DNA of 64,000 nt from Octopus sinensis. Lineage: Eukaryota. Below the pieces are notes generated by a model. It searched no databases, had not been told where the DNA came from, and worked only from the letters and a program-made list of their open reading frames with translations. The position numbers and the translations under genes are program-made. This document shows, in pieces, positions 19,909-58,026 of the stretch; the stretch's first letter is position 1; each line of letters begins with the position of its first letter. The DNA lies in NCBI RefSeq assembly GCF_006345805.1, contig NC_042997.1:208382001-208446000 (forward strand). The letters are read 5' to 3'.

Positions 19909-20322
19909 AAAGTGATAGCATGTTGTCAACTTAATGTGACAGTCCCATAAAAGGGAAGAATGCTACTGTTATTTAGCCCTAGGAGACACTGTTTCCTGTT
20001 GGACTTGACTCATTTTCTGTGTCCTTATGTTCAGACAGGGGGAGATAAGCACCTCCACCCAGCAAAGCCAGTAACCAGAGACTAGTTTCAGAGTCATTGC
20101 TCTTCATCAGTCTGGAGTAGCATGGCTTGCCAGATGTCGATGCCTATCCGCTTTTGAAAACATATTTCAAGTGAAATACATTCACTGATTTTTGAAAATA
20201 GAAATAATGTATTTTTAAATCTCATAAGGACACAGGAGATGGCGCTTCCTAGGGCTAAATAACAGTAACATTCTTCCGTTTTATGGGACTGTCACATTAA
20301 GTTGACAACATACTATCACTTT
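19909..20322. mobile_element. Element with ~90-bp inverted arms enclosing an HHR
   Basis: aaagtgatagcatgttgtcaacttaatgtgacagtccc... versus ...gggactgtcacattaagttgacaacatactatcacttt. Confidence 0.8.
20067..20126 (-). ncRNA. Minimal type I hammerhead ribozyme motif, canonical core
   Basis: Minus strand: CCAGA-CTGATGA-AGAG caatga CTCT-GAAA-CTAG-TC-TCTGG; palindromic ACTAGT helix III; GUC site. Confidence 0.85.
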
Positions 20323-27750: not shown

Positions 27751-30700
27751 GGAAAATTGGTCGGAAAAATCATGGAAAGTTCCGAGGATTTCATGCAAAG
27801 TTCCGGGGGTTTCCTAATTTCCCGGAAAATTGAGCGGAAACATCCTTGAAAGTTCCGAGGACTTCGTGGAAGTTTCCGGAGATTTCCCAAATTCATCGAA
27901 AATTGGTCGGAAACTCCATGGGACGTTCCTGGGATTCCCCAACTTCCTCGGAAATTGATCGGAAACATCCTGGAAAGTTCCGGTGATTTCCCAACCTCCT
28001 GGAAAATTAGTCGAAAACATCCTTGAAAGTTCCGGGGTTTCCCAAACTGCCAGGAAAATTGATCGAAAATTCCATTGAAAGTTCCGAGGATTCCTATTTT
28101 CCTGGATAATTGCTCGAAAAGTTCCTGGAAAGTTCCGAGGATTTCCCACTTCCCTGCGAAATTGGTGGGAAACATCCTGTAAAGTTCAGAGGATTTTCTG
28201 AAAATTCTCTGGAAAATTGGTCGAAAACTTCCCGGGAAGTTCCGATGGTTTCGTGGAATCCCCCAAAATTCCTGAACAGTTCCGGGGAATTTCAATTTTC
28301 CTCAAAAATATTTCGGAAAATTCCTGGAAAGTTCCGGGGATTTCTCAATTCCCGGGGAAATTGGTCGGAAACATCCTGGAAAGTTCCGAGGATTTCATGG
28401 AAAGTTCCGGGGATCCCCCACTTCCTGCAAATTTCCGAGTATTTCATGGAAAGTTCCGGGTATTTCCCAATAGCATGTGAAATTGGTCGGAAACATCCGG
28501 GAAACTTCCGATGATTTCCTGGAAATTTCCGGGGGTTTTGCAACTCCCTGGAAAATTGGTCGAAAACTTCCTGGGAAGTTCCGAGGATTTCATGGAACGT
28601 TCCGACAATTTCCTGGAATTTTCAGGGTGTTTTGCAACTCCCTGGAAAATTGGTCGAAGAGTTCCTGGAAAGTTCCGAGGGTTTCATGGAAAGTTCCGGG
28701 GTTCCCCCAAAATTCCTGGAAATGTTCCGGGGATTTTTAATTATCCTGGGAAATATTTCGGTAACTTCCTGGAAAGCACCGCGGATTTCTCAATTCCCGG
28801 ATAAATTGATCGGAAACATCCTGGAAAGTTCCGAGGGTTTCATGGAAAGTTCCGAGGGTTTCAGGGAAAGTTCCAGGGATTTTCCCAATTCCCTTGGAAA
28901 TTGGTCGGAAACATCCTGGAAAGTTCCGAGGATTTCATGGAAAGTTCCGGGGGTTCCCGCACTCACTAAAAATTGGTTGAAATCTTCCTGGGAAGTTCCG
29001 AGGATTTCATGGAAAGTTCCGAGAATTTCCCAATTCCCTGGAAAATTGGTCGGAAACATTCTGGAAAGTTCCGATGATTCCATGGAAAGTTCCGGGTATT
29101 TTCCAATACCCTGGGAAATTTGTCGGAAACATCCTGGGAAGTTCCGAGGATTTCATGGAAAGTTCCGTGGATTTCCCAATTCCCTGGGAAATTGGTCGGA
29201 AATATCCTGGAAAGTTCCGATGATTTCATGGAAAGTTACGGGTATTTCCCAATTGCCTATGGAATTGGTCGGAAACATCCTGGAAAGTTCCGAGTATTTC
29301 CTGGAAATTTCCGGAAAATTTCCCTGGAAAATTGGTCGAAAAGTTCCTGGAAAGTTCCGAGGATTTCATGGAAAGTTCTGAGGATTTCCCAATTCCTACG
29401 AAATCGGTGGAAAATATCCTGGAAAGTTCCGAGGATTTTCTGAAAACTCCCTGGAAAATTGGTCGGAAACTTCCTGGGAAGTTCCGGTGGTTTCGCGGAA
29501 AGTTCCGGGGATCCCCAAAATTCATGGAAAGTTCAATTTTCCTGAGAAATATTTCGGAAACTTCCTGGAAAGTTCCGGGGATTTCTCAATTCCCGGAGAA
29601 ATTGATCGGAAACATCCTGGAAAGTTCCGATGGTTTCGTGGAAAGTTCCACGGATTTCCCAATTGCCATGGAAATTGGTCGGTAACATCCTGGAAAGTTC
29701 CGAGGATTTCATGGAAAGTTCCGGAGATTCCCGCACTCACTGGAAAAGTGGTCGAAATCTTCCTGGGAATTTCCGAGGATTTCATGGAAAGTTCCGGAGA
29801 TCCCCGACTTCCTGGAAAGTTCCGACTATTTAATGGAAAGTTCCGGGGATTTCCTAATTCCCTGGGAAATTCGTCGGAAACATCCTGGAAAGTTCCGAGT
29901 ATTCCATGGAAAGTTCCGGGTATTTCCCAATACCCTGTGAAATTGGTTGGAAACATCCTGGAAAGTTCCGAGGATTTCCTGGAAATTTCCGGTTTTTTTG
30001 CAACTCCCTGGAAAATTGGTCGAAAACTTCCTGGGACGTTCCGAGGATTTCCTGGAAATTTCCGGGGTTTTGCAACTCCCTGGAACATTGGTCGAAAAGT
30101 TCCTGGAAAGTTCCGAGGATTTCATGGAAAGTTCTGAGGATTTCTCGATTCCTACGAAATCGGTGGAAAATATCCTGGAAAGTTCCGAGGATTTTCTGAA
30201 AACTCCCTGGAAAATTGGTCGGAAACTTCCTGGGAAGTTCCGATAGTTTCGTGGAAAGTTCCGGGGATCCCCAAAATTCCTGGAAGGTTCAATTTTCCTG
30301 GGAAATATATCGGAAACTTCCTTGAAAGTTCCGGGGATTTCTCAATTCCCGGAGAAATTGATCGGCAACATCCTGGAAAGTTCCGAGGGTTTCGTGGAAA
30401 GTTCCACGGATTTCCCAATTCCTATGGAAATTGGTCGGTAACATCCTGGAAATTTCCGAGGATTTCATGGAAAGTTCCGGGGATTCCCGCACTCATTGGA
30501 AAAGTGGTCGAAATCTTCCTGGGAAGTTCCGAGGATTTCATGGAAAGTTCCGGGGATCCCCGACTTCCTGGAAAGTTCCGACTATTTAATGGAAAGTTGC
30601 GGCGATTTCCCAATTCCCTGAGAAATTCGTCGGAAACATCCTGGAAAGTTCCTAGTATTCCATGGAAAGTTCCGGGTATTTCCCAATACCCTGTGAAATT

Positions 30701-30925
30701 GGTTGGAAACATCCTGGAAAGTTCCGAGGATTTCCTGGAAATTTCCAGGGGTTTTGCAACTCCCTGGAAAATTGGTCGAAAACTTCCTGGGACGTTCCGA
30801 GGATTTCCTGGAAATTTGCGGGTGTTTTGCAACTCCCTGGAAAATTGCTCGAAAACTTCCTGGGAAGTTCCGAGGTTTTCATGGAAAATTCCGGGGATCC
30901 CCCGAGGATTTCATGGAAAGTTCAA
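27751..30925. repeat. Complex satellite, ~21-bp subunits with a 756-bp higher-order repeat
   Basis: ggaaagttccgaggatttcat / ggaaattggtcggaaacatcct subunits; cctacgaaatcgg at 29395 and 30151, ccgcactca at 29731 and 30487 (both 756 apart). Confidence 0.9.
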
Positions 30926-49935: not shown

Positions 49936-49979
49936 AATAAAAATGTATTTGTATGTGCATATATATATATATATATATA

Positions 49980-52430
49980 TAAACAAATCAAATTGCGATA
50001 AAATAAAAATAATTATAATCGCTGGTATTACTAACACAAGCCATATATTTTTCATATATCAGTACATTAAGGCGAAATATGTGCTAGGAATACAGAAGCT
50101 TGATAAATAAGTGAAATGAAGATAAAAAATTTTACTAAACCGGAAAATTCTCAGACTGCAGTTTCTTTCTTTTCAGCAAACAATATAATTAATTTGCCCA
50201 GGGAGAATTCTTCAGTGAGACCCTGTTTTTCTGGGATCCTAACTCACTAGAAGCATGTGCGTCTAATGAGTTACTCTTCCTAACTAATCATATCACTGCG
50301 CAGACTCCGAACGTCCCGACAACACTAGGGAATTCTGGTATATCGCCTGGCGCTCATAATTTATCGAAAAATATGAAAACAAATCAAATTGCGATAAAAT
50401 AAAAATAATTATAATCGCTGGTATTACTAACACAAGCCATATATTTTTCATATATCAGTACATTAAGGCGAAATATGTGCTAGGAATACAGAAGCTTGAA
50501 ATTAAGTGAAATGAAGATAAAAACATTTACTAAACCGGAAAATTCTCAGACTGCAGTTTCTTTCTTTTCAGCAAACAATATAATTAATTTGCCCAGGGAG
50601 AATTCTTCAGTGAGACCCTGTTTTTCTGGGATCCTAACTCACTAGAAGCATGTGCGTCTAATGAGTTACTCTCTTCCTAACTAATCATATCACTGCGCAG
50701 ACTCCGAACGTCCCGACAACACTAGGGAATTCTGGTATAATCGCCTGGCGCTCATAATTTATCGAGAAATATGTAAACAAATCAAATTGCGATAAAATAA
50801 AAAATAATTATAATCGCTGGTATTACTAACACAAGCCATATATTTTTCATATATCAGTACATTAAGGCGAAATATGTGCTAGGAATACAGAAGCTTGATA
50901 AATTAAGTGAAATGAAGATAAAAACATTTACTAAACCGGAAAATTCTCAGACTGCAGTTTCTTTCTTTCAGCAAACAATATAATTAATTTGCCCAGGGAG
51001 AATTCTTCAGTGAGACCCTGTTTTTCTGGGATCCTAACTCACTAGAAGCATGTGCGTCTAATGAGTTACTCTTCCTAACTAATCATATCACTGCGCAGAC
51101 TCGAACGTCCCGACAACACTAGGGAATTCTGGTATATCGCCTGGCGCTCATAATTTATCGAAAATATGTAAACAATCAAATTGCGATAAAATAAAAATAA
51201 TTATAATCGCTGGTATTACTAACACAAGCCATATATTTTTCATATATCAGTACATTAAGGCGAAATATGTGCTAGGAATACAGAAGCTTGAAATTAAGTG
51301 AAATGAAGATAAAAACATTTACTAAACCGGAAAATTCTCAGACTGCAGTTTCTTTCTTTCAGCAAACAATATAATTAATTTGCCCAGGGAGAATTCTTCA
51401 GTGAGACCCTGTTTTTCTGGGATCCTAACTCACTAGAAGCATGTGGTCTAATGAGTTACTCTTCCTAACTAATCATATCACTGCGCAGACTCCGAACGTC
51501 CCGACAACGCTAGGGAATTCTGGTATATCGCCTGGCGCTCATAATTTATCGAGAAATATGTAAACAAATCAAATTGCGATAAAATAAAAATAATTATAAT
51601 CGCTGGTATTACTAACAAAGCCATATATTTTTCATATATCAGTACATTAAGGCGAAATATGTGCTAGGAATACAGAAGCTTGATAAATTAAGTGAAATGA
51701 AGATAAAAACATTTACTAAACCGGAAAATTCTCAGACTGCAGTTTCTTTCTTTTCAGCAAACAATATAATTAATTTGCCCAGGGAGAATTCTTCAGTGAG
51801 ACCCTGTTTTTCTGGGATCCTAACTCACTAGAAGCATGTGCGTCTAATGAGTTACTCTTCCTAACTAATCATATCACTGCGCAGACTCCGAACGTCCCGA
51901 CAACACTAGGGAATTCTGGTATATCGCCTGGCGCTCATAATTTATCGAGAAATATGTAAACAAATCAAATTGCGATAAAATAAAAATAATTATAATCGCT
52001 GGTATTACTAACACAAGCCATATATTTTTCATATATCAGTACATTAAGGCGAAATATGTGCTAGGAATACAGAAGCTTGATAAATTAAGTGAAATGAAGA
52101 TAAAAACATTTACTAAACCGGAAAATTCTCAGACTGCAGTTTCTTTCTTTTCAGCAAACAATATAATTAATTTGCCCAGGGAGAATTCTTCAGTGAGACC
52201 CTGTTTTTCTGGGATCCTAACTCACTAGAAGCATGTGCGTCTAATGAGTTACTCTTCCTAACTAATCATATCACTGCGCAGACTCCGAACGTCCCGACAA
52301 CACTAGGGAATTCTGGTATATCGCCTGGCGCTCATAATTTATCGAGAAATATGTAAACAAATCAAATTGCGATAAAATAAAAATAATATATCGCTGGTAT
52401 TACTAACACAAGCCATATATTTTTCATATA
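49980..52430 (-). mobile_element. Tandem array of ~396-bp units (6.2 copies) with one HHR per unit; retrozyme-like
   Basis: Near-identical units with (TA)n on both sides; HHR motifs at 50149-50220, 50544-50615, 50945-51015, 51336-51406, 51730-51801 and 52127-52198. Confidence 0.85.
50149..50220 (-). ncRNA. Type I hammerhead ribozyme motif (first of six copies)
   Basis: Minus strand: TCTCA-CTGAAGA-a TTCT..GGCAAAT..GTTTGCT..AGAA a-GAAA-CTGCAG-TC-TGAGA; palindromic helix III; GUC site. Confidence 0.75.
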
Positions 52431-52432
52431 TG

Positions 52433-53057: not shown

Positions 53058-53374
53058 AGGTGCAGGTGTGGCTGTGTGGTAAGAAGTTTGCTTCCCAGCC
53101 ACATGGTTTCGGGTTCAGTCCCAGCGCGTAGGGCCGACCAAAACCTTGTGAGTGGATTTGGTAGACGGAAACTGAAAGGATCCCGTTGTGTATATATATG
53201 TATATATATTTATGTATGCGTGTCTTTGTACTTGTGTTTGCCCTACCCTAACCCCCACCCCCGCCCCTCACCACCGCCACTATCATCGCTTGACAACCGA
53301 TGTTGGTGTGTTTATGTCTCCGAAACTTAGCGGTTCGGCAACAGAACACAATAAAATAAGCACTAGCCTTACAA
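53058..53374 (+). mobile_element. SINE family A, cut off at its 3' end by the 362-bp array
   Basis: Follows family A to aataagcactagccttacaa, then switches to the array. Confidence 0.85.
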
Positions 53375-53628
53375 GGATACAGTTTGTGTATCAAATAGCT
53401 AACTTAAGGCGATGGCCTCATGGAGCTAATAAGCGGACAGCTTTATTCTTATTTTTATAAGAATGCCATATTAGTATGGCGATAACTAATATTTTCCGGG
53501 AACGCTGCCGTTGTTCTCTTTTAGAGAGACTTAGTAATTTTAATATTTCTATTATTGAAAACAAGTGGATGTATTCCACCGAAGCTAGGTAAATAAAACC
53601 TTTGAGCAGAGATTGTCAGAAGCGACAC

Positions 53629-53700
53629 CTACTGGTCTGGCTACGCTGCATTGAAAAGGGGCAATACCCCGAAACGCGTCTGTAGCTGCCGGCCAAGTAG
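53629..53700 (+). ncRNA. Type I hammerhead ribozyme motif, U3-A8 core variant
   Basis: GCTGCA-TTGAAAA-GGGG caata CCCC-GAAA-CGCG-TC-TGTAGC; extended stem I ctac/gtag, tgg/cca, ctggc/gccgg. Confidence 0.8.
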
Positions 53701-53989
53701 TGTGGAGCGACTGACCTCCCTTGTTCAAAGGGTATATGGATACAGTTTGTGTATCAAATAGCTAACTTAAGGCGATGGCCTCATGGAGCTAATAAGCGGA
53801 CAGCTTTATTCTTATTTTTATAAGAATGCCATATTAGTATGGCGATAACTAATATTTTCCGGGAACGCTGCCGTTGTTCTCTTTTAGAGAGACTTAGTAA
53901 TTTTAATATTTCTATTATTGAAAACAAGTGGATGTATTCCACCGAAGCTAGGTAAATAAAACCTTGAGCAGAGATTGTCAAAGCGACAC

Positions 53990-54061
53990 CTACTGGTCTG
54001 GCTACGCTGCATTGAAAAGGGGCATTACCCCGAAACGCGTCTGTAGCTGCCGGCCAAGTAG
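53990..54061 (+). ncRNA. Second copy of the U3-A8 hammerhead motif
   Basis: Same as the first except the stem II loop (catta). Confidence 0.8.
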
Positions 54062-54567
54062 TGTGGAGCGACTGACCTCCCTTGTTCAAAGGTTATATGG
54101 ATACAGTTTGTGTATCAAATAGCTAACTTAAGGCGATGGCCTCATGGAGGTAATAAGCGGACAGCTTTATTCTTATTTTATAAGAATGCCATATTAGTAT
54201 GGCGATAACTAATATTTTTCGGGAACGCTGCCGTTGTTCTCTTTTAGAGAGACTTAGTAATTTTAATATTTCTATTATATATATATATATATATATATAC
54301 TAATACAGATAAGTAGAAATTTTACCGGTGGGTGTGTTAAATTATAAGGTGCTAAAAGAGAATGACTCTCCCCAGACACAACAGTTTAACAGTAGTTTAA
54401 CATTAAACCGAAAAATTATTCAATACTGTTTAACTTTTTTACTTCGAAGTCACTGTTGCCGGTGGCGAGGAGATCTCTGTTGACGAATGTATCTTCATTT
54501 AAGACAAGAGAGAATGATTTGAAGGCGATCAGATTGCACGATATCATAAAAGCTCCATCAGGAATAA

Positions 54568-54960
54568 TTGATAGAGCAACAGAGGTGCAGCAGATAGTTC
54601 ATAGAGGATCTATGAATAGCTGATAAAGGTACTATAGGTGGTTGACGGAGGTTCTATAGACAATTGATAGAGCTACCTTTGATAAATGATAGAAGTACTA
54701 CAGATATTTGATAGAGGAACTATGAATATTTGTTAGAGGTACTATAGGTAGTTGATAGAGGTTCTATAGACAGTTGATAGAGCTACCTTTGATAAACGAT
54801 AGAAGTACTACAGATATTTGATAGAGGAACTGTGAATAGCTGATAGGGGTACTATAGGTGGTTGACAGAGGATCTATAGACAGTTGATAGAGCTACCTTT
54901 GATAAATGATAGAAGTACTACAGATATTTGATAGAGTTACTACAGATAGTTAGTTGGGGT
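54568..54960. repeat. Minisatellite, ~22-bp subunits with a 110-bp higher-order period
   Basis: agctacctttgataa at 54671, 54781 and 54891. Confidence 0.85.
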
Positions 54961-55849
54961 ACAATAAATAGTAAGTAGAGGTACTTTTAGAGTGTCTATA
55001 GAGGTACAGAGATTGTAAATTGGGGTAAGATTGAAGGTAGTGGGTTACTGGGTTATTATTACGGGGCGGTTTAATGGAGATACAAAACTACTTGAGATTA
55101 GCGCATTTGTGGGGAGATGTTTGTGGTATAATGTGTTTGGGTAACACAGTGGAGGTAATGTATGAAGGTTAAAACGATGAGATAAAGGAATCTGGATAAG
55201 AAGGTGGCGGTTAAGTTGTGGCGGGGAGGAGATAAAAATGGCGGAGATAAAATAATTGAAGTAGAATACTAGTGCGGAGTGTGTGTGGTGGAGGGGGAGG
55301 TGGGTAGTTAAGGAAATGATGATGGTGATATGGTGGAGGTAAGGGGGCGGGGGCGGTCGAGTTAAAGATGGCGTCGATTGTTCGAGTGACACAAGAACGT
55401 GATGTCTGTTGTAATGCAAGAGGGGGGTAGTGTTGTTGGTGGTGATAGAGGTGGTGGTGGTGGTCGTGGTGGTGGTAGCGGTGGTCGTGATGGTGGCGGC
55501 GGCGGCGGCAGCGGTGGTCGTGGTCGTGCTGTATGGCGGTGGTCGTGCTGCACGGTGGTGGTGGTGGTGGGTAGAAGTATGAGCTGTAGAGGTATGGAGG
55601 AGAGGTGCAAGGAGGATGGGGAGGCATGGGTGGAGGGGGATGGGGGTCTGTTCTTTAATCCAATTTTCTTCCCACTTCAGCGACTCGATTAAATATAACT
55701 TTATCGTTTGTATCAGTGAAACTGTTCAGTAGAAGTGTTTACTGACTTGATGAAGTAGGGAGGGGGTAACACACACACACACACACACATAAACATACAC
55801 ATGCATATTCATATACATATATAAACATACACTACTTAAATATATATAT

Positions 55850-56383
55850 ATACATACATGCATGCACATATATATATAATAATACAGATATACACCCATA
55901 TACACACACATATATATATACAGATATACACACACATATATATATACAGATATACACACATATATATATATACATATACACACATATATATATATACAGA
56001 TATATATACACACACACATATATATACAGATATATATACATACATACATGCATGCACGCATATATATAATAATACAGATATACACCCATATACACACACA
56101 TATATACAGATATACACACATATATATACATATACACACATATATATATACAGATATATATACACACACACATATATATACAGATATATATACATGCATG
56201 CATGCACACATATATATAATAATACAGATATACACCCATATACACACACATATATATATACAGATATACACACATATATATATATATAAAGATATATATA
56301 TACACACACACATATATATATACAGATATACATACATACATGCATGCACACATATATATAATAATACAGATATACACCCATAT

Positions 56384-56455
<72 letters not shown>

Positions 56456-56510
56456 TATATATACACACATATATATACACAGATATAATATACAGATATA
56501 CACCCACAAA
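55850..56510. repeat. Compound microsatellite-derived tandem repeat
   Basis: catgcatgcac..aataatacagatatacacccat occurs four times. Confidence 0.85.
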
Positions 56511-57737
56511 CACACGCATTCATAGAAGCTCATACGCGTGCACTACCGTATACTTATAAATGCACACACAATACCATCCAAACGCATGCGCACACTCACA
56601 AATAAATTCACTCAGATACACACACACGCACACACACGCGCGCACACACATACGCATGTGCATGTATGCACTTGCCCTAAATGCACACGAAGGAATGCAC
56701 ACATGCAAACCGAAAACCTCATAAAACACGCACGCGCAAAAACACACGACTACGCATGCGCTCACATATATTATTAGCTACACATGCACTTACGCGCATA
56801 TACACACATGCACGTACATGTGTAAATAGCCACCAGTTTACACATAGGTTTCACATAGGATTCACATACGTTTCACATGTATGTTTCACATACGCTTACG
56901 TGTGCATGCTTGAACATACGATGTACGAAAATGCATGTACAGAATATATTCCGAGAGAGACATAAGCAAAAGAACAGCTCTACACATAGAGAGAGACGTT
57001 AATACAACCAAGTACCTATGTATAGAGATTCAAGTTATACACATGTTATACACACTCATACATACACGCACGCTCACACACAGACATGCAATGAACTTTA
57101 CGAAAGTGCACTCTCAAAACAGTAATAATGATGGCTTCAAATTTTGCCACAAGGGCACAACATCAACAACAGGGTATTTTTGTATGTATGTATGTATGTA
57201 TGTATGTATGTATGTGTGTATGTATGTATGTATGTATGTATGTATGTGTGTATGTATGTATGTATGTATGTATGTATGTATGTGTGTATGTGTGTATGTA
57301 TGTATGTATTATGTGTGTATGTGTGTATGTATGTATGTATGTATGTGTGTATGTGTGTATGTGTGGGGTATGTTTGTATGTGTATGTGTGTATGTGTGTG
57401 TGTTGTAGTTGTATGTATTATGTGTGTATGTGTGTATGTATGTATGTGTGTATTGTGGGTGTGCATGTATATATATGTATGTATGTATGTATGTCTGCAT
57501 GTATGTATGTATGTATTTTGTAATGTATGTATGTATGTATGTATGTGTATGTGTGTATGTATGTATGTATGTGTGTGTTGATGGGGTATGTGTGTATGCG
57601 TGTATGTATGTATGTATGTTGTATGTGTGTATGTATGTATGTATGTATGTATGTATGTATGTATGTATGTGTGTATGTATGTATGTGTGTATGTATGTGT
57701 GTGTGTATGTGTGTGTGCAGATTTGTATGTTTTGTTT

Positions 57738-58026
57738 TATGAAGCAAGTTTTGGGGCCTAAGAGGTCCATATCAGCTTCTTTGCTTTCCAAGGAGCCTTC
57801 CACTCTAATTACTAAATCAACAGAAATCACAGGTCGCTAGATCGAACATGTCTCTGAACTCCTAAACCACGAGTCAATTGTGGATGAAACAGTGATTGAA
57901 ACTATGCAACAAAGGCCTATCAATGGCTCCTTAAATTTCCACGCCCTCAATAGATGAGGTAATGACAGCAATAAGTAAATTGAATCTTGGTAGGGCACCT
58001 GTAAGGGATGGAATTTGTGCTGAGGT
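57738..58026 (+). mobile_element. RTE (BovB-like) LINE internal fragment upstream of the RT domain
   Basis: MKQVLGPK..TLIT..GR*IEHVSELLN..PSIDEVMTAISKLNLGRAPVRDGICAEV. Confidence 0.75.

Follow-up and report, generated by a model that had tools for sequence, protein, structure and literature searches.

The non-LTR retrozymes of metazoans are non-coding tandem repeats with units of 150–400 bp, each carrying one type I hammerhead ribozyme with a stem III of 1–2 bp and a palindromic loop, with Penelope-like elements (PLEs) proposed as their partners (PMC7229834; 10.64898/2026.07.22.740005; here and below, comparisons refer to the available parts of the cited papers). PLEs begin reverse transcription at two internal positions downstream of a hammerhead, and both strands of an AT-rich target are nicked and extended (PMC11167929). 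Their insertions are tandem or inverted, with a tail on one side only (PMC8557442). Newt satellite 2 has an snRNA-type promoter (cited in PMC2220036).

Natural hammerheads vary even in their core. Covariation from C3-G8 to U3-A8 occurs in nature and is cited as active in vitro (PMC3088659). Some 1300 PLE-linked hammerhead motifs of Schistosoma carry U3-A8, and a double-hammerhead design is described in which two copies pair via stem III (PMC4209133). A further group of relevance is the target-specific LINEs of the Tx1 clade, whose targets include U2, microsatellites, transposons and satellites, with Tx1L in Tx1D, Keno in U2, and Tx1-Mar as examples (PMC4494074).

The array at 53375–54278 of the window (the whole 64,000-nucleotide stretch of Octopus sinensis DNA analysed) consists of two and a half head-to-tail units (Table 1). 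It is a copy of a young, dispersed, protein-free family. Judged from its sequence, it is an animal non-LTR retrozyme by the definition of PMC7229834 and 10.64898/2026.07.22.740005: the units are short, non-coding and tandem, each full unit carries a type I hammerhead, at least two units are consecutive, and the family is dispersed and multicopy. Unlike the metazoan retrozymes described in the available text of those papers, the octopus family has a fixed U3-A8 core, arms arranged head to head whose two fixed ends lie in (TA)n where theirs have target duplications, and a unit that lacks homology to the sampled PLE terminal repeats and serves as the target of a site-specific LINE. The available parts of that literature yielded no cephalopod case.

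Table 1. Features of the retrozyme array and its immediate surroundings (positions of the window)
Feature	Position	Strand	Remarks
SINE copy	53063..53374	+	abundant; A/B-box-like head; internal deletion near 53123–53131; 3′ ~85 nt missing
Retrozyme unit 1	53375..53737	+	363 bp; unit position 1 = 53375
T5 run	53452..53456	+	expected Pol III terminator for SINE read-through
Weak U1/U2 proximal sequence element match	53557..53574	+	54 nt upstream of unit position 244; also at 53920–53937
Hammerhead 1 and long hairpin	53599..53731	+	core U3-A9 53651–53657; predicted cut after 53680
17-bp LINE target	53618..53634	+	unit 244–260, empty here; second copy 53980–53995, one base shorter
Hammerhead 1 parts	53658..53674	+	stem II 53658–53670, GAAA 53671–53674, then palindromic stem III
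Retrozyme unit 2	53738..54098	+	361 bp; private variant G232 common to unit 1
Hammerhead 2	53961..54092	+	core 54012–54018; predicted cut after 54041
Partial terminal unit	54099..54278	+	180 bp; stops at fixed 3′ end 2 of the family (unit position 181)
(TA)n target microsatellite	54276..54300	.	

Each full unit contains one type I hammerhead, laid out as TTGAAAA, a 4-bp stem II (GGGG-loop-CCCC), GAAA, the palindrome ACGCGT and TC. The motif thus has the N3UGANN8A, GAAA and UH elements, a Watson-Crick 3-8 pair and three stems. Stem I is 6 bp long and is extended by a long bulged hairpin. The resulting 133-nt hairpin of the first unit folds at −62.1 kcal/mol (z −6.2), a value equalled by none of 200 shuffles, and the hammerhead motif itself arises in none of 3000 shuffled units. 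Within one copy, stem III offers 1–2 pairs, while two copies together give a 6-bp duplex of −8.9 kcal/mol. The array coordinates, both cut sites and the TTGAAAA core of both units are as the first-pass annotation gave them. That annotation also stated that the two motifs differ in loop II alone, which is true of 53628–53702 versus 53989–54063 (CAATA/CATTA) and not of the longer hairpin, where there are single-base indels. At its gathering score, Rfam reports no hammerhead in the window. This miss is not specific to U3-A8, because Rfam also overlooks a canonical CTGATGA hammerhead at 20110. The latter, on the minus strand at 20080–20110, is a lone type I motif with a palindromic ACTAGT stem III and a long stem I.

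The U3-A8 core is itself an already known natural variant. Its description as a compensatory 3-8 pair was correct, the same pair being present in published variants (PMC3088659, PMC4209133), among them the PLE-linked Schistosoma hammerheads (Cercyon, PMC4209133), which the octopus family resembles in this respect. Among 164 family copies, including subfamilies of 75–90% identity, the majority base falls below 90% in 0 of 12 core columns versus 22 of 116 others, a contrast inflated in part by the patterns used to pick loci, which fixed U4, G5, A6, A9 and GAAA and left U3, N7 and A8 free. The core stays constant while N7 and the flanks vary among copies. In the same set, compensatory stem pairs occur at unit positions 229-353, 257-324, 266-315 and 284-296, and the palindrome shows a GC>AT replacement as well, all counted as sequences and not as events.

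Sister families in the same genome align to the unit over 180–340 columns at 56–62% identity, and all five tested exceed every shuffle. Their cores are CTGATGA, CCGATGA or CCGACGA, with a C3-G8 pair, and in one case TTGACGA, with U3-G8. In the motif context of the young family, a C3-G8 version has no match genome-wide. The family-wide 3-8 covariation that had been suggested as a check is therefore absent inside the family, where U3-A8 is fixed, and is seen instead against the homologous C3-G8 sisters. It had also been proposed that the double change reflects selection for cleavage. Since U3-A8 is fixed in the family, the two copies in the window count as one inherited event; what stands is that the fold is under selection, as supported by the invariant core, the compensatory stems and the C3-G8 sisters. 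Compared with the natural core variants of PMC3088659, the 3-8 pair here differs between homologous families of one genome, so that U3-A8, C3-G8 and U3-G8 can be set side by side as natural core variants of a single scaffold. These families also show that retrozyme surveys restricted to CUGANGA count too few. At loci L242, L249, L251, L252, L255, L257 and L265, the sister families have a C as the fourth core base (CCGAYGA). The 3-8 pair takes a third Watson-Crick form in this genome, A3-U8 (ATGAATA), in a PLE-associated hammerhead at locus L049 (2072–2096), followed about 65 nt on by (TA)n.

When positions 3, 7 and 8 are left free, the 30-letter motif has 1081 exact matches in the 2.72-Gb genome (reversed control, 0), with TTGAAAA in 99 of the 100 matches listed. 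A looser pattern has 1779 matches; among the 100 of these listed, N7 can be any base, A8 is constant and U3 is present in 99. The best copies are 98–100% identical and spread over many contigs. No sequencing run on record as RNA is listed among those that contain the unit; contigs of runs only presumed to be RNA span it with the core bases retained, which carries no information on expression, ends or circles.

The end statistics rest on every one of the 53 entries from which the first 100 of the 1081 matches come, giving 89 arm ends. Of these ends, 38 lie at unit positions 108–123 (~118), 45 at 174–187 (~181) and 6 elsewhere, so that nearly all fall at two fixed 3′ sites 63 nt apart, and 60 of the 89 lead directly into TA repeats. 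Head-to-head arms make up 36 of the 53 entries: 32 combine an end of the one class with an end of the other, no entry combines two ends of a single class, and 4 have one odd end (p = 2e-10). Four entries are pieces of arrays split by a LINE (L062, L080, L081 and L089, with L080 and L081 forming one locus); when the loci with a full-length LINE are read whole, the retrozyme ends fall one per class in 3 of 4. Older subfamilies, at 82–88% identity, end at both of the same sites (36 loci). We could not find this one-end-per-site rule in print. The array in the window is a single arm that ends at site 2 in (TA)n.

These statistics largely refute the reading of the array as a satellite that spread locally by DNA-level amplification and whose hammerhead is dead or due to chance, which we consider extremely improbable. 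Local amplification has been proposed for such repeats (10.64898/2026.07.22.740005, in its available part), and units are indeed more alike within an array than between loci, but dispersal, fixed ends, inversions and TA targets all speak against it, as do the compensatory changes and the shuffle controls.

Penelope-type enzymes instead likely inserted the family into TA microsatellites, to judge from the form of its insertions: copies are tandem and inverted with 5′ truncations, the tail is on one end and the target is AT-rich. It shares with PLEs such as PAc the AT-rich targets and two internal reverse transcription starts downstream of the hammerhead (PMC11167929), and with Naiad and Neptune PLEs the tail on one end only and the tandem and inverted 5′-truncated copies (PMC8557442). 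Unlike PLEs, as far as the available sources describe them, the octopus unit has no ORF, its tail measures 63 nt against 30–40, and its starts lie 175 and 238 nt after the cut. Hundreds of young insertions that follow the one-end-per-site rule represent a genomic readout of PLE priming on both strands, an open step in the PLE cycle, and the rule is direct evidence for PLE-type enzymes moving retrozymes rather than amplification in place alone.

The 5′ ends, by contrast with the 3′ ends, are scattered round the unit, with 2 of 88 at the cut site. The template was therefore continuous across the cut, being either a circle or an uncleaved multimer. Substitutions between units amount to 0.9% within an arm, 0.8% between arms and 2.5% between loci, and the variant common to the two units in the window is found in none of 140 other segments. 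The opposite arm is the nearest haplotype, alone or jointly, in only 19 of 32 inverted loci. Taken together, the comparison of units suggests that each insertion had one template. It is possible, though doubtful, that this template was an uncleaved linear multimer, the hammerhead being slow or dispensable for copying and a circle unnecessary. With an anole PLE in vitro, insertion persists when the hammerhead is mutated, and the principal substrate is uncleaved RNA (PMC11167929), monomers with a minimal stem III cleave poorly (PMC4209133), and 4 of 88 non-LINE 5′ ends lie at the predicted transcription start, unit 243–246 (p 0.017, uncorrected). Against a linear template, arrays hold up to nine homogeneous full units, most simply explained as read-arounds of one monomer, private variants are common to all units of an array, and circles are the main form of coral, mussel and axolotl retrozymes (PMC7229834).

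The genome holds intact PLE ORFs of 781 aa with RVT_1 and GIY-YIG domains, and the 3′ repeats of these intact PLEs contain TTGATAA (U3-A8) hammerheads and give way to (TA)n at two sites some 37 nt from each other. One young two-ORF PLE family (479 and 781 aa; loci L121–L125, L130 and L137) has a 37-nt tail and a U3-A8 hammerhead whose stem I is weak and AU-rich and whose triplet is GUU or GUA. DNA and protein comparison with 50 loci sampled from about 5000 GIY-YIG candidates revealed no PLE whose terminal repeat is homologous to the unit, and none was found beside the family at 53 and 36 loci. The likeness of the unit tail to an antisense PLE N-terminus was not significant (E 6.7). Two candidate traces of a parent PLE were discarded: a 35-nt match in locus L140 is AT-rich noise, and a 5′ flank common to four loci proved to be a LINE. 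Two of the 36 older-subfamily loci adjoin PLE RT fragments, which is a hint only. At locus L179 (5534–6250), both head-to-head arms run into one and the same stretch of a PLE ORF2 N-terminus in antisense, and at locus L206 a PLE RT fragment is joined 5′ of the array.

The array takes the place of the 3′ end of a SINE, as had been noted; about 85 nt present in other SINE copies are absent at the junction, and were not found in 54279–58000. From its A/B-box-like boxes we infer that this SINE derives from a tRNA, although ARAGORN finds no tRNA. The first-pass annotation suggested that Pol III, reading through from the SINE, might drive the array. We consider it very unlikely that the array is expressed mainly in this way, as a SINE-retrozyme chimera. 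A sense SINE with an A/B-box-like head is joined to unit 1 without its own 3′ end, one of the top-scoring loci (L011) likewise shows SINE sequence where its 5′ junction lies, and such a join could arise if the template switched from retrozyme to SINE RNA. Yet the arrangement accounts for 1 of 17 single-arm entries, with no second copy of the chimera among the loci examined, and a weak snRNA-type promoter match lies within the unit itself. The T5 run and three T4 runs precede the first cut, in line with the caution, already voiced in that annotation, that T-runs may terminate Pol III. Moreover, in its other copies the SINE itself runs out into (TA)n, which is the target of the family. The SINE is likely a bystander at the target, and the simplest reading is an insertion into the TA tract behind it, with a deletion at the 5′ junction.

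The promoter match was evaluated with a matrix built from 14 U2 and 14 U1 genes of the genome, all 28 of which have TCAGT 54–58 nt upstream. The U2 genes (loci L268–L281) are dispersed over many contigs and have three upstream types, with some pairs 1.7–4 kb apart. At −54, a position chosen beforehand, lies the best plus-strand match of the unit, with 9–10 of 12 letters as in the main U2 type. The match is weak at 5.8 bits, about a third of the 15–24 bits of real U1/U2 sites, and two minus-strand sites in the unit outscore it. Its score is reached by 5 of 3000 shuffles at the same spacing and by 347 of 3000 anywhere in the unit. In a sister family, TCAGTGAA stands at the corresponding point of the alignment, and the four 5′ ends at unit 243–246 coincide with the predicted start. 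These features are suggestive of an snRNA-type promoter, as in newt satellite 2 (PMC2220036), with a predicted start near 244, although the match here is weak.

The predicted start is also the 5′ edge of a 17-bp site at which the family is the target of a site-specific L1/Tx1-type LINE, a relationship that the first-pass annotation had missed, as it had the nature of the array as a PLE-type insertion from a dispersed family. Four family loci contain this 5.35-kb LINE, whose ORF1 has a zinc knuckle and whose ORF2 has an endonuclease, an RT and a C-terminal zinc finger; its nearest solved protein is L1 ORF2p. Its Tx1 label is provisional: no named Tx1 homologue is among its matches. The nearest named LINE homologue marks the genome as octopod-like. 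A pattern for the LINE 3′ end has 39 matches, and in all 30 loci listed unit 244–260 comes next, without poly(A), followed by the hammerhead in 28 and by another LINE in 2. Of the 20 readable 5′ junctions (3 more are unreadable), 19 are full-length at unit 260; the remaining one is a 69-bp truncated copy joined at unit 253 with a shorter duplication of its own. The target duplication is 17 bp, with the same allele on both sides.

An alternative is that the LINE never targeted the family repeatedly, a single insertion having been carried along as a LINE-retrozyme composite. The uniform, full-length 19 of 20 junctions would fit this, as would a correlation between LINE and host distances over 17 loci (Mantel 0.53, p 0.001) and two copies of an ORF1-only relative that have the same rearranged retrozyme piece at their 5′ end. 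Without two divergent-subfamily loci, however, the correlation falls to 0.15 (p 0.06). LINEs 0.3% apart sit in hosts 2.3–2.9% apart, and the copies of a LINE-target-LINE tandem differ by at least 0.7%; the LINE insertions were therefore independent. The truncated copy with its own duplication also argues against a composite, as does the lack of any readable copy cut within the LINE and missing the upstream target, which would be expected had a PLE copied a 5.7-kb composite. We regard the composite as unlikely.

The ORF1-only relative (1.7 kb, ~30% identical to the LINE) has 44 matches. In 30 loci, two of which look duplicated, it is followed by the same site of older subfamilies in 10, by sister-family hammerhead units in 13, by a short target with another element behind it in 2, and by unrelated DNA in 5.

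Compared with the Tx1 clade by its features, the octopus LINE resembles the target-specific members in having two ORFs, an apurinic-type endonuclease, one site in a multicopy repeat and tandem re-insertion (PMC4494074). It differs from the examples in the available text of that paper in that its target is a hammerhead retrozyme at the predicted transcription start and its 3′ junction has no poly(A). A ribozyme repeat, with a 17-bp site, would add a new class to the targets of site-specific retrotransposons. We found no published LINE that targets a retrozyme in the mostly open literature outside Repbase, and cephalopod motifs or satellite targets may figure in the supplements of PMC7229834, PMC4209133 and PMC4494074.

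We consider it highly probable that the life cycle of the family combines transcription from an snRNA-type promoter, predicted self-cleavage and copying in trans by a PLE into (TA)n, with a LINE separately targeting unit 244–260. The motif, the family, the insertion geometry and the LINE targeting are direct observations. In this cycle, the element at unit 183–200 would start RNA near unit 244, and since it sits upstream of 244, each unit would be driven by the preceding one. Two hammerheads would pair via the palindrome ACGCGU as a double hammerhead and cut after C17, and the predicted self-cleavage would yield monomers of ~361 nt, likely circularised. A PLE RT/GIY-YIG enzyme acting in trans would then nick both (TA)n strands and prime internally at the two fixed sites, 175 and 238 nt past the cut. 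One priming site per strand would give rise to head-to-head arms with one end at each site. In the window, the site-2 arm alone would have survived, its 5′ end joined into the neighbouring SINE and the SINE tail lost. The L1/Tx1-type LINE would use and duplicate unit 244–260, leaving the downstream hammerhead whole.

We further speculate, more tentatively, that three tiers are nested here, in which retrozymes with their own promoter ride a dimeric PLE, and a LINE specialised on their start borrows both of its RNA ends. The dimeric Penelope enzyme would prime once per fixed site, and the LINE lineage would have specialised on the retrozyme transcription start across several sister families. An inserted LINE would take the unit's promoter for an exact 5′ end, and its 3′ end would be made by the downstream hammerhead, which cuts 63 nt into the target, so that a target-complementary tail replaces poly(A). 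If true, the LINE would owe both of its RNA ends to a ribozyme repeat.

The window contains further tandem repeats. The unit was said to be unrelated to a neighbouring 397-bp array at 49975–52431, and alignment agrees (local alignment score 23/28; shuffle maximum 42). That array has 6.2 copies at 98% identity and no hammerhead by a strict descriptor, and its best match to the U1/U2 promoter matrix is ATATATCAGTACATTAAG, at 8.7 bits. A complex minisatellite with periods of 21, 52 and 73 bp occupies 27751–30902, and a 22/110-bp minisatellite lies at 54591–55007.
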